Shown piece by piece: positions 2,299 through 52,044 of a stretch of 64,000 nt of DNA. The notes below the pieces were generated by a model that saw only the letters and a program-made list of their open reading frames with translations, did not search any database and was not told the origin of the DNA. Source of the stretch: Vicugna vicugna (Eukaryota); assembly GCA_013265495.1 (NCBI GenBank), contig MU058198.1:6773779-6837778 (forward strand), given 5' to 3'. Every line of letters begins with the position of its first letter. Position 1 is the first letter of the stretch. The position numbers and the translations under genes were made by a program.

Positions 2299-4959
2299 GA
2301 TTCTTTAAGCACCTTTGTCTCCTACCTTATAGGAGATGAAGTCCCCACTGCAGAAAGGAGGGAGGCGTGGGCAGCTGAGGAACTGGGGGAAGTAGCTGCA
2401 GAAAAATCAGGGAGGACAGTGGAAGAGGAAGCCCAGAAAGCCCTGGGGGGCCTTGGAGGCAGCCAAAGCAAGGGGGTTGGAGGGCTGAGAGGTCCTGGAG
2501 AGGCTGGAAGGCACCCAGAGGAAAGCTCAGCTGCAGAACAGACCTGGGGTGGGGGAGAAGGCAGCTCCCACGGGTCTCAAGCAGATAGGCAGGACACTGG
2601 GGCCTGGGAAACAGCTAAGGCCACCAGATTCCAGGATTCAAGTGTCCCCTTGGAGACCAGAAAGAAGTCTGAGGCAGGGTCTGAGTCTGGTGGAGACAGG
2701 AGGAGCCAAGCCCAGGAGAGTCGGGAGCTCGATGAGCAGGAAGTGAACAGAGAAGAGACACTGAGAACCTGGGAACAGGAGGAGGAGGAGGAGGAAGAGG
2801 TCAGGGCAACAGAGCCAGGGGTAGCTGGAGGGGAGGAGTCAGAGTGGACCTGGCAAAAGGAGCCTGAGGGGAAGGCCAGTGCTGATGGACTAAAGGTAGC
2901 AAGGGACAGCCAGGAGGCAGAGCAGGTGGTCAAGGAGGCAGCTACAAAGGAGATCCAGGGGCCTGGGGCTAAAGGGCCTGGGAGGGAGGAAGAGGTGGTG
3001 GTAGTGGTAAGGCATGGCCAAAGCACAAGGACACAGAGGACACAGGGGACACAGGAGCCAGAGGCAGAATCTGAGCACGGGGAACCCTCAGGCAGAGAGG
3101 AGGCAGGGACAAGCTCAGGCATGGAGGAGGCTGCCCTCCCAGGAGTCAAGGAAACAGAATATGGGACAGTCCCAGGAGAAAGGATCCCAGAGGATACTGG
3201 GAGAGTCTGGGCCCTAGAGGAGACCTCCAAGGGAGACCAGGAGGAGGTGGATGAGAATAAGGAGTTTGAGGTGAGCCTGTTCCCCAATCAGACCCAGGCC
3301 CTGGGAATTGAGGGAGTGGAAGAAGTGGCCAGGGACCAGGCAGAAGGGAGGATGGCTGAGGAAAACCAGGGGTCAGAGAAGGAGGTAGGGGAGGGCTTGG
3401 AGGGCCAGGCAGACTGGGCTGAGGAAGAACCCGTGGGGAGGCAAGACTCAGAGATCAGGGTGGCTCAAGCCAGTCTCAAGGAGGCGGTACAGGCAGAGGA
3501 GGCCGGGGAGCAGGAGAGTTGCTGGGCCGCCGAGGCTGGGCTGCCCCAGGGCAAAGTGGCAGACCGACCTGAACATGATGCTCACTTGGAGGCAACCCCA
3601 GAGGCCAGGGCCGAGAAAGTGTTCAGTAAGGAGAGGGGTGAGGAAGAGGCTCAGACAGGTGGGGAAGCATTGGAGGTGGAATGTTGTGGTCTTGAGCACA
3701 AAGTCACTGAAGGCAAAGAACCTGAGCTGATGGAAACCCCCAAGGCCCCAACAGAGCAACCTGAAGAAGGGCAAGCGGGTAAGGAAGTGTTCTGGAGGGT
3801 TCCAGTCCTGAGCGAAGAGGAGACGGAGAGGAGCCTGGAGGAATATCCCAGGAACATGGGGCATGAAAAGCCTAATAGCTCTGTGGCCGAAGCCTGGGAA
3901 CACAGGAGAAGAAGGGGCGTGGAGGGAGGAAATACCCAGGAGGAAAAAGCAGGTGCTGATGTGGGGAAGGAGGAGGCTACAGGAGGCCAGGCAGTGGTGG
4001 CTGAGGCTGAAGGAGGCCGAGAGCCTGCACAACCAGAGATCCCAGAGACAAGTGGGGAGTGGATCAAAGCAAAGGAAGCGGGACGTGGAGCAGAGGAGGA
4101 GGAGGCCCCTGGCACTGAGAACCAGGAGCTGAGTGGAGGGCATAGGGCGGAAGCAGGGACTGGCCAGTCACTGGGAGAGTCAGATGCCAGAGAAACCAAG
4201 GAGGAGGAGGTGGAGGCCACTGTGCCCTGCGGGGCAGACAGAACATCCAGCAGAGGCTGGAGGCCGGAGGCGGAGGCTCTGAGCCTCCAGGATGGCGAAG
4301 ACATGCAGGCAAATTCTTTGGCTGCCGAGATAGTGGAAGATAAGGCAGCTCTGGGTGGAAGGGCCGCTGGGGAAGGTCCTGAAAGAGAGGCAGGGGAAGC
4401 ATTCAAGAGAGGCTGGGATTCAGAAGAGAGAGAGGAAGCTGGTGGAAGTGAGGAGATGGCGGAGGCTGCAGAGGAAGGGAATAGAGGTGGGCAGGAGTCT
4501 GGCCTGGAGGGCTTAGCAGAGGCTTTTGAGGCCATGGAGGGTGAGCAGGGGGGAGAGCAGGCAGAGGTTAGGGATTCTGCAGTGGCGGAAGGAAGCTGTG
4601 GGATGGATGGCTTTACCTCGGACTCCCAGGCGGTAGGGGCAGAGGGCCTCCCAGGAGAGCAGACTCTGTTGGAAAAAGAGTCTGAGGGATGGGAGGCAGG
4701 GGAGCAGGGGCAAGACAGTGAGGGGCAACGTGGGGACCAGCACCCCGAGGGACAGGCCCAAAGGCCCCTTGATGTGGAGGATGACGAGGTGGCTGGAGAC
4801 CAAAAGGCGGAGGCTGAGGACATTGATCCACGAGGCCTGGAGGATGTCCAAGGCCAGGAAGACCAGTCAACAAAGCAGGACCCTGCAGAGGCCAAGCCTG
4901 GACCATGTGGGGAGGCCTCAGGGAGAGTTGGAGAGGATGTTCACAGCAGTTGGAGTGAG
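2299..4959 (+). CDS. APOBR: APOBR exon 2, large Glu/Gly/Ala-rich exon (887 codons)
   Basis: Acceptor tcttctag; starts DSLSTFVSYLIGD, in frame with ORF 2419; ends HSSWSE before donor gtgagg at 4960. Confidence 0.93.
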
Positions 4960-5044
4960 GTGAGGGCTCCAGGTAGGATTCAGGCCCGGCCAGAGCAGAA
5001 TCTCGAAACCGGCCCCACAGTACCCTGTGCCCTCTTCCCTGTAG

Positions 5045-5310
5045 GCCCTGCTGCCTGGGTCTCGCCTAGATGTCTCTGTCCCGAGGAGCCGTGTACTCCT
5101 CTCCCGCAGCTCCTCACAGCGCCGCTCCAGGCCCTCTTTGCGACGGACCCCCGGCCCTGAGCACCTGGAGGAGCCTCCCAGCCCTCCATCCAAGGAAGAG
5201 CTGTCAGCCCCTGAGCAGAGACTTCTCCAGCCGGAGGGCCTCCAAGAGCCAAGCCCCCCAAGGTCTGAAGGGACCCCATTGCCAGCCAGGAGAATGCCTC
5301 TGGGACAAGG
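5045..5310 (+). CDS. APOBR: APOBR exon 3 (ALLPGSRLDVSVPRSRVLLSRSSSQRRSRPS...PLGQG)
   Basis: Acceptor ccctgtag, donor gtaagc at 5311; matches the conserved APOBR C-terminal region. Confidence 0.92.
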
Positions 5311-7639: not shown

Positions 7640-8500
7640 CCACTTCAAACCCAACCTCATCTCTTTTTGGGTTCCATTCTCAGCCCAAACTCCAATCCCC
7701 ATTCCATCTCCATTCTAGTTTCATCCTTAACCCCATCTCCATCCCCACTCTCTTCCTATGCTCATCATTCCCATCTCCACTGTCTCTGATCTCTATCCTA
7801 TCTCCTTTTCCAACCTCATTTCAGTCCCGTGCCCAAACTCATCTCTACCCAAAACCCCATCTCCATCCTCCTATCTCTCTCTATCCAGAATCCCATTCCA
7901 TTCTCTTCTCTATTACCCCATCCCATTCCCATATCCTCACTTGTTTTCTTCCTGTCTCCAATTCCTTTCCCACCCTTATTCCCATTCCTAATCCAGATTC
8001 CATCCCTATTCCATGTGTCCAGCCTCACTGTCACCATCTCTCCATCCCATCTCCAACTCCATCCCAACCCCACCCCATCTCCATCCTCACCAGAAATCCC
8101 CATCCATTCTCTCTCCCCCATTTCATTTTTACTCTCATCCCCAACCTCTTCCCACACCTAACCTCTCTCTTCATTCTCATTCCTTTTAAAATTCTTTTTT
8201 GTTTTCTTGGGAAGAGGGTGGAAGTAATTAGATTTATTTATTTAAAAAATGCTTTTTACCCATTCTCACTCCCAATGCCAACTCCATCCCACCTCTATAC
8301 TAATCTCTATCCCAAATCCCCTTCTATTCCCACCTCTTTCCTTGCCCAGCTTCACTCTTACCCTCTTCTTAACTCCATTTGTTTATTTCAGCCTCATCTT
8401 TATATTCAATGACATACCCAGACTCCTTCAGATTATATCCCTCAGTTTATCCCCAAACCTGTTTTCAATTCAATCCCCAACTTTATTCCATTCACCCAGC
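7640..8500. repeat. Low-complexity (CCCATY)n-like pyrimidine-rich tract, IL27 intron 3
   Basis: G-poor plus strand with many ccatc/cccatt units. Confidence 0.7.
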
Positions 8501-8550
8501 CCAGCCTTATTGCCAGTTTGCCTGTCCCACCCCACTTGTCCCCTACTCAC

Positions 8551-8649
8551 AGAGAGGCCACGCCAGGCCTGGAAGGTCAGGGAAACGTTGGGGAGCTGCT
8601 CTCCCAGGGGCAGAAGGTCCAGGTTCACTCCTGGCAGGTGAGATTCAGC
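8551..8649 (-). CDS. IL27: IL27 exon 3 (AESHLPGVNLDLLPLGEQLPNVSLTFQAWRGLS)
   Basis: 99 nt, acceptor ccccatag, donor gtgagt. Confidence 0.95.
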
Positions 8650-8733
8650 CTATGGGGCAAAGTCTGTTAGTGGGGGCCCGAGGGGACTGGAGATTTTCCC
8701 ACCCCCAGAGCCAGTTGCATTAGGGGGACTCAC

Positions 8734-8906
8734 AAAATGATGGGCTTGGACTCGAACCTCGGAGAGCAGCTTCCTGGCGAGATGTAGGCTGACCTTGAAC
8801 TCCCTCTGCAACTCCTGCAGGCTCAGGGGGGACCTCCCTGGGGGCCTCGGGAATCCCCAGACACCGGCTAGAGCCAGGAGCAAGGAGAGCAGCAAAAGGC
8901 TGAGTC
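8734..8906 (-). CDS. IL27: IL27 exon 2 (signal peptide and helix A)
   Basis: 173 nt; LSLLLLSLLLALAGVWGFPRPPGR...SLHLARKLLSEVR; canonical AG/GT. Confidence 0.95.
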
Positions 8907-9961
8907 CTGGAGAGATGGGGAGGGGATGCGCAAGATGAGGGGAGAACTTGAGAACTCGGGAGAAGGAAGAGAACGTGCCTTTTCTGAGCCTGTGCTACAG
9001 GCAGGCTCTGTGTGTCATCACATTGACCCCTCAGAACCATTAACAATAGTATATGGAAGCCGTTGAGAACATCATATGGCATCTCTGTACGAGAGGAGAG
9101 TGCCCCTTCCCCCGGCAGACACAGCCTTCCACAGAGTGCTCTTCTTTGCAAGCAGATCTTAGGCTGCATTTTGATCCCCACTAACTGCCTTGGCCAAGTG
9201 TCTTTTTCAATGAACAAACTGCACAACAGTGTAAGGCAGTCTGGGTACTGTTATTCTCCCCCTCTTGCAGATGGAGAAAGTGAGGCTCAGCGAGGTTGGC
9301 TTGCCCAAGGTCACATAGCCAGAGGGTGAGGGGACCAGGACTGGATTCCAGATCTGCCCAAATGTAGAGCCTCTGTGCTCCCTGAAGGGAACTCAGAGGA
9401 GGCAAGCACCTCCCCTGGAGTGGGCACAGGCTGTTCTGCCAAGGATTCCTCCAGCTTAGCCAGGTGGCTCTGATGGCCTGAACCAGGTAACACTGAAAGC
9501 TCTGTCCCAGGAAGTCAGAAGGAGAGATTGGTCCAGGCTCCCCCATGGCAGGGGGGTTATTCTGCAGTGTGGGAGGAATGGAGGGGTGCCAGGAGAGAGA
9601 GGAAGGCCTGGAATGGGAGGCAGAATCTCTGTTTCTCATTTGAGCTCTTCCCTTGAGCAAGTCATCTCTTATCTCTGTGCCTCAGGCTCCCATCTGTAAA
9701 ATGGGGGAATCAGACTGGCTGATTTCTGTAAGTGCTTCCTGCCCTGTGTTTCCTGGAAAGAAGGAAGAGGGGCCATGGGGCTGGAGCTCTGGAAAGAGGG
9801 CAGTGTTCAGCAGTTTCTCCTTCAAGGAGAGGAAATCTAGCAATCACTGGAGTTACACAATTCCCTTCGAAACACAAACCAAAACTGGCCGCTAAGTTTA
9901 AGTCTATTCCTGCTTATCTTTCTCTCCATGCCCCTCTCCTATCCATTCTTTTCTTTTCTTT

Positions 9962-10087
9962 TTCTTTCTTTTTTTTGGCAGGGGGAGGTAATTAGGCTTA
10001 TTTAGTTTTAAAGGAGGTACCAGGGATTGAACTGTGACCTCATGCATGCTAAGCATGCGTCCTACTACTTGAGCTATACCCTCCCCC
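9962..10087 (-). mobile_element. tRNA-Ala-derived SINE (camelid Vic-1-like)
   Basis: Reverse complement reads ggggagggtatagctcaagtagtagg...gcatgcttagcatgcatgagg with aagcctaattacctcccc tail and poly(A). Confidence 0.85.
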
Positions 10088-11100
10088 ACCTCCTATCCAT
10101 TCTTGATCTCTAACCCCTGGGCTCTAGTCCTCTCAGTAAAGACTAAGGGGAGCATCTGGGTGCTTCCACTACCCTCATGGACCTCCAGGGGGTGGTGGGC
10201 CATGCTTGCAATGCTAGCATTCAGGCTCCCTGGCTTGGGAGCCACTGTGGCATCCCAGAGACTTAAAACAGAGTAGGAGGTCTTCCTAGCTCTTTGAGTG
10301 GGCTCCCCCAGGCCCCGGGGGATAGTGCCCATCCAGAACTGAGCTGTGCCATTTCCTACTGACCCCTTGCTTCCTGCCTGAGCTCTGGAGCCCCCAGACC
10401 CTTCCCTTGACTTCTCCTTCCCCTTGGCAGCCAATGCTGGGTCCTTGGCCCTGGCCTTTGAAGGTTCTGTCCCCATCCTTCAGCCCTTGGCCCCTACTCT
10501 GATTCTACCAATCTGCTCCTTTGCTTATAGCTCTAGTTCCAGCCTCTGAGTCTTTCAGTCACCAACTGTAGATTGGACCTCCTTCCAAGCTTCAAACTCC
10601 AGACCCTTGACCCAGTTGGGCTTCTTGGTCCCAGCCCCCAGCTCATGCCGACTCCCCCTGCTGTTCTTCCTCCAGCTGGCCCCAGTTATCAGCCAGGCTG
10701 AATGGCCCCTGCCATCCTCTCCAACTAAACTCTTCCATTTATCTGCCTAGTCCAGGTCCTGGTCAAACCGTCTGCCCCGCTCTCCCCATTCATGCCACTC
10801 ACAGCTTTCCAGCCTCAGACCAGCCCTTACCAAACCATCACCCTACTACCCCTGTCCTCCTATTTATGCCAGGCAACCTGTCCCATCCTCTGCCCAGCCC
10901 TGGCCTAACTACTCCTCCTCTGCCCCAGCCCCTCTCCCCCATGTATGCCTGCCTCAGTCCCATCCTCCTACAGTCAGCTGTATCCCATATTCTTAGTCTA
11001 GGCCAAGCAGTTGCCTCTCAGCCCTAGCCCCCATCCACACCAGTCAAACCCACCCCCCCACCCCCCACCCCTCTGTCCCCAGCCCTGGCCTCAAACTCAC

Positions 11101-11131
11101 GCCAGCCAAGGTCTCCTGCCATCTGGCCCAT
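11101..11131 (-). CDS. IL27: IL27 coding exon 1 (MGQMAGDLGW R); spliced CDS 714 nt, 237 aa
   Basis: gtcATGg; 31 nt then donor gtgagt; matches human MGQTAGDLGWR. Confidence 0.93.
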
Positions 11132-11179
11132 GACGGGGCCCAGCCTCTTTGGCCAGCCATCTCCCGGGCAGGGGGAGTC

Positions 11180-15500: not shown

Positions 15501-17329
15501 TAGGTTTTAGTTAGTGGTAGTAGTATGAGGCCTGACCCACAGGATGCTCTCAAGAAATGTTAGTTGTCATTAGCAAATTCACAGGATGGCTGTCATCAAT
15601 GGGCAAAGAAAGGTCAAAGGAGCACAGGAGCAAGAGGGTAAGAAAGGAACAGAAGAGGCTGCAGTTAAAGCTTAGGAAGCTCAGATAGGTAGGGGATACA
15701 GGTGGGGGGACCTCAGGCAGAAGTCACCTCATAACCCAGAGACATGTGTCAGAACAGACTTTGGGCCAGAAGTAGAAATCTCAGGCAGCCAGCCAATGGG
15801 GCTCTGGGTCACAGTGTGGACAGCCTCAGATCTGAGGACCAATGGTTTGTGACTCACTTCCCAGGCCAGATGAGGCTTCATCAAGTGTCCCTATGAAAAG
15901 GACTTGGAACAGAGACAGACACTGGACTGAGCTCCAGAACAGGCATCTTAGAGAGGCAGGCAGGCCCCGGGCTGACACCAGGTCCTCCCGCAGCCCTGAG
16001 CTCCGAGGCTGACGCCAGGCTCCACAGCAGTCCCAGGCCCTCACTGGGCAGCACCCAGCGGGTCTCAACCACCTCTGACCACCACATCCCTTGCTTGTCC
16101 TGCACGTTGCTTGTGGAGCCCCCAGGTGAGTGGCCAGTTGACTCCTCAAGAATGGGACACCCTCACTGCTTATACTTTTTAAATTTTTGATTTGATTGAT
16201 TGATTGATTGGTTTTTAAAGTTTTTTTAATTTTAAAAATTTTCTTATTTTTTTACTGGTTATATTTTTACATACCACCTGATTTATGCCAAAGAATATAT
16301 ACAACATATATGTTTCTGCTCACCCAATTTTTTTCCTTCTACCTGAGTTTTGGTCTTGGGTGCCAACAGACTATCTGCACGATTGATTCACTGATTCCCA
16401 TGGCTCCTCGTTTCACACTGAGTGAAAGAAAAAACTCTTCCAATGGCTTACAAGGACCTCACGATCTCTCCCATTGACCTGTTCTATTCTCTCTGTGGTC
16501 TCCTTGCTGCCCCACAAACACACAAGACACACACTTACCTCGGGGCCTTTGCACCTGCTCTTCCCCCTGCCTAGAATATATTTCCCTCAGCTCTTCAAAT
16601 AACTGGCTCCTTGTCCCTCCTTCAGGGCTCAACTTCTCATAAATACCTTCTTCCCTCTGTGGCTCTGAAGATTGTCTGATCCCATGCCTACCTACACCAG
16701 GACTCTGTTAAAAATCTAAGATCTAGATGTTAGTCTCACCATATTTCAATTTTTCTACACCTCCCAGGCCCTTCCAGACCTTGAGCTTCCACCTGGCATC
16801 TAGGTCAGGCATCTAGGCATCTAGGTCCTGTTGGAAATGTTAATCAGAAGAACTTCCATTCTTTCCACCTTTCCACACTGAGGCAGAATTAGGGGTTGAA
16901 TGCTGAGGTGTGGGAACGCTGCTCCTTGTCCACAGAGGCTGTCGCCGAGCTGAGCAGATGGAACAGACATGAAGTCAGAGAGAACAAGACAAAACAGAAT
17001 CCTTTGTAATTTCCTGGGAGACCCTGGCAACTTGTTTTTTTGCCTTTATTTCTTTACCTGGGGAGTGAGCATAGCAATACTTTTCTCTCAGAGAAGGAGA
17101 GCACACGAACGTGTGCTCTTGGGCTCTCAAAACCAGAAGGTGCTATTAATACTGAGAGCTTCTGAAGCAAAGACTGTCAACTGGTCAAGTGGTGAGAGGA
17201 TGAAGAGAGAAGAGCACCACTTGGGATGCAGTTGATACCAGTCATTTCCACCTGCCCACTGCTCTTTTATTTTAAAAATTAATTAATTAATTTTCATTCT
17301 TTCTTTTAAAATTAAAACATATAATAAAG

Positions 17330-17768
17330 CATCAGGATTTTCCTTTGGAGAATTATCCATTCTTTGTCTCTGAGGTCAACAACCCTTATGGTGGGCACAT
17401 GCCACCATGGCCCAGCCAGTCAGGGTGCCCCATACCCCTCACTACAGTGTAGGGTTTAGGGATGCATACATGACACACAGAGTCAGTGCCTCCCTGGACT
17501 TGCTGTCAGGAAAGAGGCTTTTTCTCTGCAGGGCTGACTAGACTGGGAGTCTGTGAACCTGAATCTGCTGGGGGCTGCCATGAGGAAAGACTCTGCCTCA
17601 GACTGGAGCTGAGAGCTGGAGAGGGAGCCAACAATCTTGATGATGACTTACTTTGAGCTCCTGGATCTAGCTATTCCTGAAGCAGTTAATTCTGAAATGT
17701 TTGGTTTCATGAGCCAATCCTCTTTTTTAGCTTAAGCTATGTGAGTTGTATTTCTATTACTTGTAACA
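17330..17768 (+). mobile_element. MaLR LTR (MLT1-like)
   Basis: tttgagctcctggatctagctattcctgaagc...cttaagcta..tgagttg.atttct.ttacttgtaac 3' signature; subfamily not determined. Confidence 0.65.
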
Positions 17769-18140
17769 TATCCCCTCTTCTGCCTGGATTGACCTCCACC
17801 ATTGATTTCCAATGTCAAAAAACCACAGACTAGATTTTTAAAATCATGATAAAGTCAAATAGTATCATATTGTGCCAGATGCCAGTAGAGAGGCACATCA
17901 GGAAGAAAGAACAGTGTGAAAACAGAGTAGCTGCTTGGTCAATATTTACTGAGCTGTAACTCAGTATGTCCTAGGCATCATTCTACAGCAGTATCTCCAA
18001 TGAAGCCAACAGGAAGTTCTGGCTTCATGCAGCTTATGCTAAATGGAATAAAATTGAAGTTGAAATTTAATCAAATGTAAAATGCTAAATCTATATAAAT
18101 ACTGAATCACTATGCTGTACACCTGAAACTAATATAGTAA

Positions 18141-18657
18141 TTTTTTTTCTTTTTTGTGCCTCAATAATTATGTGCTTAATTTGAACACAACAATTTTGTA
18201 TTTTTCTCATGTTTCTTCTTGATAGATGATAAGCTGTTTGAGGGAAGGAATAATTTAATTTCCTTTTGCTTCAGTCCTCTGCTGTATCATTCAAATGAAT
18301 GGTTTGAATAACATTTAAAATTTTTATAGCATATATAGTAATTTTTATTGTAGTATAGTCAGTTTACACTGTTGTGTCGATTTCTGGTGTACAGCAGAAT
18401 AGTTCTATCATACATATACATACATATATTTGTTTTCATATTCTTTCTCATTACAGGTTACTACAAGATATTGAATATAGTTCCCTGGGCTATACAGTAG
18501 AAACTTATTGTTTATCTATTTTATATATAGTAGTGTGTATCTGCAAATCTTAAACTCCCAATTTATCCCTTCCCACCCTCTTCCCCACTGGTAACTATAA
18601 GTTTTTTCTCTATGTCTATGAGTATTTCTGTTTTGTAAATAAGTTCATTTGTCTTTT
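18141..18657 (-). mobile_element. 5'-truncated L1 (18341-18657) with probable 3' transduction (18141-18340), nested in an older L1 tail
   Basis: L1 3'UTR text on minus strand; near-identical 17-nt flanks tgaaactaatatagtaa 18124-18140 and tgaaactagtattgtaa 18658-18674. Confidence 0.6.
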
Positions 18658-19387
18658 TGAAACTAGTATTGTAAATAAGCTAAAAAAAAAAAAAAAGCTT
18701 AAGCATCAAAAAACAACAAAAAAAAAGCCTGTAGGTACCAGGTACTTTTCAACTATTGGCTCATTTAATCCTCACAATAACCCTATGTTGTAGGTATTAT
18801 TATTAGTGTTCATTTTGTGTGGAAGAGGAAACTGAGGCCCAGAGAGGTTAAGGCTTTGTGCCCAAGGTTACAGAGCTAGTAAATGGCAGCTCTGGGATTT
18901 GAACCCAGGACATCTGGCTTTCTTGACCACTATCCTATACTGCCTGGTAGAGCAGTTGGCTTTTTCTAAGTCTTCTGTATATGCCAGACACTGTTCTAAT
19001 GGCTTTACATGCATAAAGTCACATAATTCTCAAAACAGTCCATTTCACAGATGAGGAAACTGAGGTTTAGCAACAGTAGCAGAACTGAAATTTGAACCAA
19101 GACAGTATGATTTGTAAGAACACACTCTTTTTTTTCTCAGCTTTATTGAGGTATAATTGACAAATAAAATTGTAAGTTATTTAAAGTGCACAATGATCAT
19201 CATAACAAAAAAATTTTTTTATTTCTTTAATTTTGTATCTATATGAGATGGTAGATGTTTACTAAACTTACTGTGGTCATCATATCATGATGCATGTAAG
19301 TCATATCATTATGCTGTACACCTTAAACTTATACAGTGCTATATGTCAGTTATATCTCAATAAAACTGGAAGAAAAAAATAAAATTG

Positions 19388-19552
19388 AGGGGAGGGTATA
19401 GTTCAGTGGTAGAGCGCATGCTTGCATGCATGAGGTCATGAGTTTGATCCTCAGTATCTCCATTAAATAAAATTAAAAATAGTAATAATAATAATAATAA
19501 TAAATAAATAAACCTAATTACCTCCCCCAAAACAAAACAAAATAAAAATAAT
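19388..19552 (+). mobile_element. tRNA-Ala-derived SINE nested in L1 fragments (about 19130-19710)
   Basis: ggggagggtatagttcagtggtagagcgcatgc...aaacctaattacctccccc with A-rich tail. Confidence 0.85.
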
Positions 19553-20079
19553 AAAGTACACAACATGATGATTGTGAAAGAATTCCCCCTGTCAAGTTAA
19601 TTAACACATCCATCACCTCATATACTTATCTTTTGGGGGGGGTGAGAGCGTTTAAGTTCTATTCTCTTAGCAAATTTCAATGACACAATACAGTGTAACC
19701 AGCTAGAGTCACAAGAGTCTACACTTGAAACCCCTAGTGCCTACAGCCTCTAATGAATGAACGAAGGAATGAGGAGGGGTCAGAAAATAGAAACCAGGCC
19801 CAGAAATGAAGGACAGCAAGAGGCCCAGCCCTGAGGTCCCACATCCAGTTGGTGCTGGGTTTCAATCTTAATAAAGAGATGATCCCTGCTGCGTTCACTG
19901 ACAGTGTGATGAGCCCTGCTTGCCCCGCCCCCACCCTACAGTCCGACAGCTGGACCTTTCCGTGTTCCCCAGCACCAGGGATCTTGCCAGGGAGACAATG
20001 ATGAGCAGCACAGTTCAGAAGAATATAGGGAACAGAGACAGAATGAGAGGGTGGAGGAGAGGAGAGGACACGGGCAGAT

Positions 20080-20307
20080 CATCGTTTGCAAGTATTTTCT
20101 CCCAGTCGGTAGGTTGTCTTTTTGTTTTGTTGATGGTTTCCTTTGCTGTGCAGAAGCTTGTCAGTTTAATGAGGTCCCATTTGTTTATTTTTGCTTTTAT
20201 TTCTATTGCCCTGGTAGACTGACCTAGGAAACCATTGTATGATGTCAGAGAATGTTTTGCCTATGTTCTCTTCTAGGAGGTTTATGGTGTCCAATCTTAC
20301 GTTTATA
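20080..20307 (-). mobile_element. Internal L1 ORF2 fragment without poly(A), flanked by 15-bp direct repeats
   Basis: tttgcaagtattttctcccag...gtttcctttgctgtgcagaagctt...aggtcccatttgtttatttttgc is L1 ORF2 antisense; flanks agga(c/g)acgggcagat at 20065-20079 and 20308-20322. Confidence 0.8.
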
Positions 20308-21967
20308 AGGAGACGGGCAGATTAGCGTGTGGAGCCGAGAAATTCTCCCAGCCCCCAGGGCTCTACACATCCCTCCACCAGTAATCTCATGGCCATTCCT
20401 CCCAATTCTGGAATTGCTCACCTGTCCAGGGGTAGGAATATACATTCCAAGCTTTCTCAATCAATACCAGGAAGTCGTGAGGCGCAAAGAGGTAGATGAC
20501 AGCAGAGATCTTGCAGCTAGTGAGGGAGCTGGGGTAGAGGTCAGAGGTAAGAGCTATGTCAGGCTCCCCCTCCCCTTTCTCCACCTCCCTGACCCCCATC
20601 CTGGCTCACATTCACCTCTGCAGGTGCAGACTGGTCCCCTCACCAGGACTCCTCTAGCAGAGCTGCTTGGTCAAGACTTCAATGCCGTCATCACTTTCCT
20701 TGCTGGTCTGAGCCACAGAATGCAACTGTCCACCTGGTTTGGGAGGAGGAGGAGAGTGGGGCAGGCCCAGGCCACTCAGACAGAAGCAGCAACGTTACGT
20801 GGACACCCCCATCCCCAACATATACAGACACACTTTGTTCTCATTCTGAGGGGAAGCAGACATCAGCACAGACATCCCTAAAATGGTCCGGACTGCGGCA
20901 AGAGATGCAGAGGGCCTGGGGCTCCTTGTGAGGAGAGGGAGATTCCTATGAGGCATCTGAGGAAGCTTCCTGCACAAGAGAGCCTCTGACCCAGGCCAGC
21001 TCCAGCTGTGCCCCAAAACAGCTGACAAATTATTTTCCTTTTGAGCCTCAGTTTGTGTATCTGCAAAATGGGGATGAGGACTGTATTTGCCTGATGAGGC
21101 TATTGGGAGGGTCAAATCTATTGGATAACTGGATAGGGGAAATGATTCCTAGCCAGTGAAAAGGCAACACTAACGTAAAGAGTTATTGTTGAGAATCAGT
21201 GGAATTCTGACAGGGAGTAATGAGAAAAGAAATGTCCTTAGGAAAAGGATGATGTAAAGCAACACTATTTCTTCTTCTGTTTTTTTTCAATATGGCAGAA
21301 TAATTCTTTGTGTGTGTGTGTGTGTTAGTTTCATATGTAGAGCAAAGTGATTCCATATATATATATATATATTCTTTAAAAGATTCTTTTCCATTATAGG
21401 TTATTATAAGATATTGAATGTTGTTCCCTGTGCTAAGCAAGACTGTTTCTGACTCATTCATTCATGAATACTTATTGTGCACCTTCTTAGTGCCAGGCAC
21501 CAGCTCTGAAGAAGAGGAACCAGAGGGCACTTACTCTAAGGTACAGGTGATTGAGGTCCTGGAATGCCACACTGAGGAATATAGACTGTTTAAAAAAAAA
21601 AAAGAACATGGACTGTGTCAAATAGGCAGTGGGGAGCCATGTTAAGAAGGATGGTGACAGAGAGGATTTCCTTCAGACAACTGAAGAGTCTCCTGGGGGA
21701 TGGCGCATCTCTTGCACGGAGTTGAGCAGCAGCCCCTGACTGGAGGGATGGTGGGGTAGGACCTAAGCAGAAGAGAGAACACTTTGGCCTCCCTGCCTGG
21801 CCCCCATGGTCCTGTCATCACCCCCCACCCTCTGCCCGTGGTCAGTCACTCAGCCTCCAGCCCTCATTTCCTCAGGTTTATTAAGTGCCGGTGGTCCCCT
21901 CCCCTAACCCTAGACAACAGAATAATAAGTAAAATATATAGTATGTTCGATGGTCCTATGTACTCTT

Positions 21968-30545: not shown

Positions 30546-30682
30546 TCAGCGCCGTGCCCCTCGCTTCTTCCGCTCCGTGTTCTGGAGCTTGGTCACCAGT
30601 TTCCTCTCGTGCCCACCAGGGCTGGGGCGGTTGGTGTTGGCAGCAGCTTCTCTCTTGGTGCGACCTTTCCGGCCTCCCACCC
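30546..30682 (-). CDS. NUPR1: NUPR1 exon 2 (GVGGRKGRTKREAAANTNRPSPGGHERKLVTKLQNTERKKRGARR*)
   Basis: Acceptor ctcccag; diagnostic p8 motif; TGA 30548-30546; donor gtaagg at 30534. Confidence 0.96.
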
Positions 30683-31107
30683 CTGGGAGTGGAGGCAGGA
30701 GTCCGAGGTGAGGTGGGCAGAGGGGTGCTGCCCCAAAGGACAGGCAGGGGGTCCAGAGTGCAGGGGTGGAAAGAGCTTGGGTTAAAGTTGGGAGGTGGAG
30801 GGGGCGTTGTCACCACATAGCTTTAGGGCAGCCATTGTCTCTGTTTCCTCGTCTATGTGAGGGACCCCTCGATTGACTGTTGTTGCTCCATTGAGTGTCT
30901 GAAGTCCCAGGGTTGAGTAGGACAGGCGCTCAGTGGATGAGGGGCTAGAAGGGGGTGACTTGAGGGCTCAAGGGAACAGGCTGGAGAGAGATGATGTGTG
31001 GGCAGGAACCCAAGGATGGATCCTAGTTTGGGGAGTGGGGTCAGACTGTTCGTGAGGGTGGGCATTCGAAGTGGAAGAACCAGGAATGTGGCAGGGCCAG
31101 GCCTTAC

Positions 31108-49246: not shown

Positions 49247-52044
<2,798 letters not shown>

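Follow-up and report, generated by a model that had tools for sequence, protein, structure and literature searches.

A dead class I PITP gene between NUPR1 and IL27 in the vicuña, a probable relic of the PITPNB-like gene of jawed vertebrates

Mammals are known to possess two class I phosphatidylinositol transfer proteins (PITPs), alpha and beta. The locus described here raises the question of whether a third once existed alongside them and, if so, which. In a 64-kb stretch of the Vicugna vicugna genome (contig MU058198.1 of a 2.03-Gb assembly; hereafter, the window), a series of short segments resembling consecutive exons of a class I PITP gene lies between NUPR1 and IL27, all three on the minus strand. 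An earlier reading of the letters, made with no database searches (the sequence-only reading), had proposed that the series is the fossil of an intron-containing class I gene. Here, we confirm the PITP similarity, describe the anatomy of the relic and report a third ancient clade of class I PITPs, PITPNB-like (pitpnbl). Most probably, the relic is a unitary (i.e., unprocessed and unduplicated) pseudogene of this third class I PITP gene of jawed vertebrates.

Collinear class I PITP exons and their lesions

We built a class I hidden Markov model (HMM) from 22 full-length proteins (262-275 amino acids) out of 120 listed matches and searched with it all 3,788 stop-to-stop open reading frames (ORFs) of at least 8 amino acids on both strands of the window, with every filter off. 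The three top-scoring ORFs, at 20515-20420 (16.9 bits, E 6.5e-4, profile positions 66-97), 19902-19825 (11.7 bits, positions 99-124), and 20731-20669 (8.4 bits, positions 21-44), are all on the minus strand, within 0.9 kb and in profile order, and correspond to exons 4, 6, and 3, respectively. The reversed window, used as a null, gave a maximum of 4.5 bits, or 6.8 bits with an HMM of the PITPNB-like clade. Ungapped sub-profiles of the individual exons, run across the window, also score these three pieces highest (Table 1), and tblastn with a mammalian PITPNB query returned E values of 4e-5 and 0.059 at these exons. Against the Pfam family IP_trans (PF02121), the exon-4 ORF reached E 0.0038 and 17.3 bits, below the 21.3-bit cut-off, with no other relic exon reported by the scan; the same ORF matched PITP-beta in the PDB (2a1l) with E 0.046, and a search for homologous proteins of near length produced no candidate sharing three 5-residue words with it.

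The two outer pieces among the five segments originally listed are weaker, yet supported. The exon 2-like RTILGMSV ranks 58th among 1,119 sub-profile matches and 21st among 127,954 window positions with a PITPNB-like sub-profile; about 0.05 equally good matches are expected by chance in the 300 nucleotides (nt) upstream of exon 3. The exon 7-like piece ranks eighth of 2,299 in the window and first in the NUPR1-IL27 interval. With a 12-column PITPNB-like sub-profile, the columns of which were picked after the candidate had been seen, it ranks first of 127,930 (12.6 versus 9.0 bits), and it raises the read-through score. The latter was obtained by joining the relic exons, with X at the breaks, and scoring the product against self-built clade HMMs; for exons 3-6, it amounts to 57.9-64.9 bits across all of these HMMs.

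It might be suspected that short peptides encoded by repeat-rich intergenic DNA match the profiles by coincidence, given that single exons are marginal, as the Pfam scan illustrates, and that a genome-wide PF02121 search at E <= 10 missed the window altogether. However, the three best ORFs stand adjacent, on one strand and in profile order, an arrangement with an estimated chance of roughly 1e-4 or less, and their scores exceed the 4.5-6.8 bits attained in the reversed window. Coincidence is rendered extremely unlikely also by the exact exon lengths of 92 and 75 nt, two splice donors at the exact phase, and read-through scores of 65-84 bits. Individual pieces are marginal but the collinear set is not, and its PITP similarity is real.

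The relic retains the class I exon-intron structure. Consecutive exons of the vicuña's own PITPNB measure 31, 146, 92, 8, 75, and 84 nt, and the relic pieces of 31, 92, and 75 nt equal its exons 2, 4, and 6, in agreement with the sizes given in the sequence-only reading. The phases given alongside them hold at the donors of exons 3 and 4, which are in the parental phase, and fail at exon 2, which is one base off relative to that of own-genome PITPNB. Similarly, only some of the splice ends survive: read directly, AG and GT border exon 2, and GT follows exon 3 (donor AG/GT at 20615-20614) and exon 4 (GT at 20421-20420), whereas the acceptors of exons 4 and 6 and the donor of exon 6 are lost or shifted. 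The pieces are separated by gaps of ~120, 100, 520, and 2,940 nt at parental intron positions. Introns standing where class I PITP genes have theirs rule out a processed pseudogene (retrocopy), i.e., an intronless copy of an mRNA, in line with the sequence-only reading. The compactness of the first three gaps, equally part of the original proposal, is borne out by comparison with the vicuña's PITPNA and PITPNB, where introns extend over kilobases.

Part of the ~520-nt intron past exon 4 is a later addition. At ~20303-20075 on the minus strand lies an inserted repeat, the translation of which resembles, by eye, the end of ORF2 of a long interspersed nuclear element (LINE); it is bordered by a near-identical direct repeat (atctgcccgt.tcc), which we read, also by eye, as target-site duplications. 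Without the repeat insertion, the intron measures ~290 nt. In the same 523-nt interval, only 3 sites have the form AG-N7-9-GT, one of them being ATTACTG at 20385-20379. The own-genome micro-exons of 8 nt read cag/TTGTAACG/gt in PITPNB and cag/TTATTACA/gt in PITPNA, and the 7-nt candidate is no more than suggestive of a relic of micro-exon 5.

The disabling lesions noted in the sequence-only reading are present. TAG codons interrupt the exon 3-like piece in frame (20656-20654) and the exon 7-like piece (16823-16821), the latter at a position occupied by Gln in intact proteins. The exon 3-like piece carries a 1-nt deletion near its start and a net in-frame loss of 21 nt, which includes four codons of the QYTHKIY stretch. 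It is single-framed from GQL to HLQ, the indels between these two motifs totaling a multiple of three, and reads GQLHSVAQTSKE..DGIEVLTKQLC-stop-RSPGEGTSLHLQ in this frame. In the exon 7-like piece, WK and MEVLL are in separate frames. We take T59, K61, E86, and N90 (rat alpha numbering) to be the lipid-headgroup residues. Of the first two, both originally thought deleted, K61 has no K or R equivalent under any alignment, while the equivalent of T59 is ambiguous; the E and N of EKAWN are kept, as stated. The relic thus has neither an open frame nor the full set of headgroup residues, and the two in-frame TAGs, the frameshifts, and the missing K61 equivalent mark it as a dead rather than a working class I member. 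By contrast with these pieces, exons 4 and 6, which together span 167 nt, are clean of indels and stops despite replacement of about half of their residues.

Table 1. Relic pieces and flanking genes in the window. Bits are those of the ungapped exon sub-profiles, with the next-best match in the window in parentheses.
Feature	Positions	Strand	Remarks
NUPR1 coding exon	30549-30809	minus	Pfam Phospho_p8, E 3.5e-19; upstream of the relic
Exon 2-like, 31 nt (..RTILGMSVL..)	20862-20892	minus	flanks cAG and GT; weak on its own
Exon 3-like	20616-20739	minus	best exon-3 sub-profile match in the window, 22.8 bits (21.5)
Exon 4-like, 92 nt (KISAVIYLFAPHDFLVLIEKAWNVYSYPWT)	20422-20513	minus	32.7 bits (15.8); 0 indels, 0 stops
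Candidate micro-exon 5 relic, 7 nt, ag/ATTACTG/gt (..IT)	20379-20385	minus	35 nt past the exon 4 donor
Exon 6-like, 75 nt (SERSRDHLFIKIETQHQLDVGPQGW)	19825-19899	minus	25.5 bits (15.6); 0 indels, 0 stops
Exon 7-like: WK, frameshift, MEVLLINISNRT-stop-M	16818-16881	minus	2.9 kb beyond exon 6, repeat-rich DNA between
IL27 exons 1-3	8473-11179	minus	downstream of the relic

Several further resemblances were set aside. Weak minus-strand matches at 27229-27185, 25891-25811, 21321-21283, and 15123-15082 are not collinear and were treated as chance. The second-best exon-3 sub-profile match (21.5 bits; tblastn E 0.41) lies beyond exon 7 on the same strand, at 16072-15974, and its peptide, ..VVETRWVLPSE..GLGLLWSLASASELRAAGGPGV, looks like PITP exons 2 and 3 fused, with no intron between them. 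This resemblance is probably due to chance because the segment is GC-rich and of low complexity.

A third class I clade and the placement of the relic

The identity of the lost gene depends on which class I PITPs vertebrates possess. A query with a divergent eel protein retrieved many proteins named 'beta isoform-like' and 'beta, like'. When 59 proteins, hand-picked by name and length, were placed in a tree, nine formed a clade apart from PITPNA and PITPNB, with a Shimodaira-Hasegawa-like approximate likelihood ratio test (SH-aLRT) support of 96. Its members come from a ray, a coelacanth, two teleosts (the 'beta, like' proteins of a salmonid and a loach), an axolotl, a snake, a lizard, and two turtles, and the 90% clusters to which they belong take in sharks, newts, many squamates and turtles, as well as, in the loach cluster, zebrafish pitpnbl (NP_998608.1), the additional beta-like PITP of zebrafish invoked in the sequence-only reading. 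No mammal or bird is found among the listed members of these clusters, the large ones being listed in part. Cartilaginous fish, teleosts, coelacanth, salamanders, turtles, and squamates thus possess members of a third ancient class I clade, PITPNB-like. It is reportedly the 'PITP-gamma' of a 2010 zebrafish paper. An initial view of the fish 'beta-like' genes as PITPNB duplicates peculiar to teleosts, suggested by a tree of 34 rows, did not survive the broader sampling of 59 proteins. Four teleost proteins named 'alpha-like' or 'beta-like' (P0189, P0196, P0210, and P0212) form a fourth group (SH-aLRT 90) outside PITPNA, PITPNB, and PITPNB-like, which could be either an old fourth paralogue or fast-evolving teleost duplicates.

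Profile fit favors the third clade. With clade HMMs of nine sequences each, the summed single-ORF scores of the relic are 40.1 bits for PITPNB-like, 34.7 for PITPNB, and 30.1 for PITPNA. The read-through of exons 3-6 scores 64.9 bits against PITPNB-like, 59.2 against tetrapod PITPNB, and 57.9 against PITPNA, and that of exons 2-7 scores 84.0, 76.6, and 77.0 bits, respectively, so that the PITPNB-like profile has an advantage of 5.4-10 bits over those of PITPNB or PITPNA. The diagnostic residues point the same way: I40, Q65, I72, F75, V82, F108, Q122, V138, and T147 of the relic make up the combination of PITPNB-like. Tetrapod PITPNB differs from the relic at positions 65 and 72 and mostly also at 75, 122, and 147, and PITPNA at 40, 72, 75, 82, 108, and 147 and mostly also at 138. 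In addition, R-S-P-G-E of the relic resembles the RPGE of turtle PITPNB-like proteins (4 out of 4 turtles), where PITPNA and PITPNB have [KR]DGE. The relic hence combines residues specific to the PITPNB-like clade with the best fit to its profile. When added to the tree, it falls inside this clade (10 rows, SH-aLRT 96, quick search) on an end branch of 2.9.

The codons tell of the manner of divergence. Over 74 aligned codons, the relic is identical to the vicuña's own PITPNB at 47, 60, and 33 first, second, and third positions, respectively; the corresponding counts between PITPNA and PITPNB are 62, 71, and 30. These identities imply that the encoded protein was still under constraint during part of the divergence and that silent sites are saturated, in accordance with the strong divergence from both genes first proposed. 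Some excess of third-position change is to be expected anyway because PITPNB itself changes at silent sites. The pattern argues against a duplicate of recent origin whose decay was neutral from the outset, and a recent duplicate is unlikely because of the short introns, compared with kilobases in PITPNA and PITPNB, and the saturated third codon positions.

The relic might, instead, be a DNA-level (segmental) duplicate of PITPNB or PITPNA that originated in the tetrapod or mammalian lineage, came to lie here, decayed, and has nothing to do with the PITPNB-like clade. Such an origin would sit well with a tree of 34 rows, computed earlier without PITPNB-like sequences, in which the relic grouped with tetrapod PITPNB; with the relic's identity of 48-53% to PITPNB, close to the 48-54% to PITPNB-like; and with approximately unbiased (AU) tests, in which grouping with tetrapod PITPNB (difference in log likelihood 0.42, p 0.475) or with PITPNA (0.72, p 0.46) was not rejected. 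We nevertheless regard it as improbable. Introns of own PITPNA and PITPNB exceed those of the relic 10- to 100-fold in length, third codon positions are saturated against both genes, K65 and V72 of tetrapod PITPNB are lacking along with most of its states at 75, 122, and 147, and so are the PITPNA states at 40, 82, and 108. Moreover, the relic is located where the intact PITPNB-like gene of a turtle appears to sit, and the pairing of ASPHD1-like and ASPHD2-like neighbors argues for old block paralogy rather than a transposed copy (see below).

Several observations weigh against an origin from PITPNB-like and temper our confidence in it. The AU tests did not reject grouping with all PITPNB either (difference in log likelihood 0.01, p 0.49), and, because none of the three alternatives was rejected and the 34-row tree placed the relic among tetrapod PITPNB, the protein tree is uninformative as to the long relic branch; accordingly, the tree called for in the sequence-only reading places the relic in the clade and does not discriminate by likelihood. 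Over 99 columns, the relic is about equally similar to all class I proteins (44-54% identity). PITPNB-like leads by a few bits in profile score and by a handful of diagnostic columns, and the members of this clade are not independent of each other. Neither exon 1 nor exons 8 onward were found with sub-profiles or either HMM, with nothing above background in the NUPR1-IL27 interval, as the sequence-only reading had also noted. The freedom of exons 4 and 6 from indels and stops is somewhat unexpected under very old neutral decay. Finally, adjacency in the turtle is read from the name of a gene rather than from coordinates, the ASPHD pairing speaks for paralogous neighborhoods and no more, and the mammalian evidence comes from the single genome of V. 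vicugna. On balance, descent from PITPNB-like remains, in our judgment, the likely origin of the relic.

Absence of an intact copy and the genomic neighborhood

A unitary pseudogene should have no intact counterpart in the genome. PF02121 yielded 26 matches in the assembled sequence, in only five intact loci, and a turtle PITPNB-like query yielded 24 matches, 23 of which fall in the same five loci at 37-84% identity; the remaining one is weak and unrelated (E 7.15). These loci are PITPNA and PITPNB, on contigs C3564 and C7503, respectively, i.e., elsewhere in the genome as expected, together with three others that we read as PITPNC1 and two PITPNM-type genes. None is nearer to PITPNB-like than PITPNA and PITPNB are, and the assembled genome contains no intact PITPNB-like copy, although one could hide in assembly gaps. 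Together with the profile fit and the diagnostic residues, this result supports the original suggestion of a unitary pseudogene of an ancient paralog.

In one turtle, the public name of the intact gene hints at a neighborhood like that of the relic. Protein XP_067420004.1 of Emydura macquarii (P0243) is a complete IP_trans protein of 271 amino acids (E 6e-116) and a member of the PITPNB-like clade, and its public name is 'interleukin-27 subunit alpha isoform X2'. The simplest reading, drawn from the gene name and not from coordinates, is a gene model that merges PITPNB-like with IL27 located downstream on the same strand. The IL27 name on a PITPNB-like protein would imply adjacency to IL27, as for the relic. 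NUPR1 or IL27 domains were absent from over-long PITPNB-like gene models, 13 out of 13 of which carry IP_trans only.

On a larger scale, matches to PF05118 (ASPHD-type) are located 0.21 Mb from the window and 1.0 Mb from PITPNB, each on its own contig. An ASPHD1-like gene near the relic and an ASPHD2-like gene near PITPNB fit paralogous blocks, and human 16p11.2, 22q12, and 17p13 are such blocks. RABEP2-like, ATP2A1-like, and ASPHD-type genes flank the window at 0.1-0.2 Mb on either side (G000:C1614:6657135-6669385 and 7044934-7046426). Family searches placed the rabaptin and SERCA paralogues on contigs other than that of PITPNA.

Taken together, these results suggest the following history. 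The ancestral PITPNB-like gene would have been situated between NUPR1 and IL27, on their strand, with class I exon structure and short introns, and its product was presumably a soluble phosphatidylinositol/phosphatidylcholine transfer protein. Along the vicuña's line of descent, the gene would have lost its function, probably long ago. What remains would be exons 2-7, marked by two TAGs, frameshifts, inserted repeats, degraded splice sites, and in-frame deletions that took away some of the inositol-binding stretch, whereas exon 1 and the 3' half may have been deleted or have become unrecognizable. The clean exons 4 and 6 and the in-frame indels of exon 3 hint that a coding phase under relaxed selection may have preceded the death of the gene.

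The same clean exons, along with three surviving GT donors and one AG, would also be compatible with a gene that died as a protein gene and was kept as exons of a long non-coding RNA (a 'fossil lncRNA') or as regulatory DNA of IL27 or NUPR1. Mammalian fossils of this kind have been described (Hezroni et al. 2017, PMC5577775). However, roughly every second residue has been replaced, several splice sites are gone, and term searches for PITPN, NUPR1, and IL27 gave 0 occurrences in the accessible text and supplements of PMC5577775 and PMC10195156. Such a second life is, in our estimation, even less probable than a segmental duplication, and the relic is presumably devoid of present function.

The immediate neighbors were assigned as follows. 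Exon 2 of IL27, at 8653-8994 on the minus strand, matches interleukin-27 subunit alpha in the PDB (E 1.7e-14); additional IL27-like ORFs are found at 8473-8649 and at ~11.1 kb, the latter tentatively assigned to exon 1. A 953-codon open frame at 2299-5157 on the plus strand, without a Pfam match at E 0.01, occupies the spot where APOBR adjoins IL27 in other mammals. On the other side, at 49395-50570 on the plus strand, neighboring open frames carry adh_short (E 1e-8), the N-terminal domain of MFE-2 hydratase, and MaoC dehydratase (E 1.8e-15). This HSD17B4-type domain order in uninterrupted DNA indicates that the segment is probably a processed copy of an HSD17B4-type peroxisomal multifunctional enzyme gene.

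Comparison with known genes and pseudogenes

Among known genes, the relic is closest to PITPNB-like by its best profile score, nine diagnostic residues, maximum likelihood placement in the clade, and apparent adjacency to IL27 in a turtle. The members of this clade are intact proteins of 270-272 amino acids, whereas the relic consists of exons 2-7 only, with two stops, frameshifts, and deletions; it departs from them at about 46-52% of the aligned residues, and the likelihood tests do not establish orthology. With PITPNB and PITPNA of the same genome, the relic shares exon sizes and phases, the EKAWN and IKIET motifs, and 59-63% nucleotide identity over the 74 codons. Unlike the relic, these two genes are intact, lie on other contigs and have kilobase introns; its silent sites are saturated against theirs, and it lacks their clade-specific residues.

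The relic resembles mammalian unitary pseudogenes and 'fossil' loci (Zhang et al. 2010, PMC2864566; Hezroni et al. 2017, PMC5577775) in being an unprocessed remnant that sits at the ancestral syntenic location and lacks a working counterpart in the genome, and it differs from the fossils listed in PMC5577775 and PMC10195156 in that its locus is absent from the searchable parts of both. Another mammalian pseudogene of the PITP family, a PITPNC1 pseudogene at human 1q32.1, is mentioned in a review (PMC8266687). It belongs to class IIB, has an intact parent, and is located elsewhere, and the accessible passages of the review make no mention of a class I relic. Nor did a term search find PITPN in the accessible text of a paper on the synteny of the IL-12 family (PMC12162339). 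A literature search for PITPNB-like and for a PITP near IL27 or NUPR1, with bioRxiv supplements outside its reach, returned no description of the relic, which has apparently been undescribed before.

In kind, this is ordinary gene loss. Jawed vertebrates ancestrally had a third class I PITP, PITPNB-like, which many non-mammals have kept, and the relic probably marks its grave, adjoining IL27, in a mammal. A by-product of the analysis is a probable annotation artifact in a turtle, where PITPNB-like is filed under the name of IL27. A bolder proposition, which we hold to be possible though rather doubtful, is that the fossil occurs in most therians, in all of them, or even in all mammals. The third class I ohnolog would then have been lost on the mammalian stem, and the clean exons 4 and 6 and the exclusively in-frame indels inside exon 3 could reflect a long relaxed coding phase or later reuse in a transcript near IL27, rather than simple decay. 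The relic is useful mainly for dating the mammalian loss of the third class I PITP, and it makes testable the time of the gene's death, its role where it survives, and a takeover of that role by PITPNA or PITPNB.

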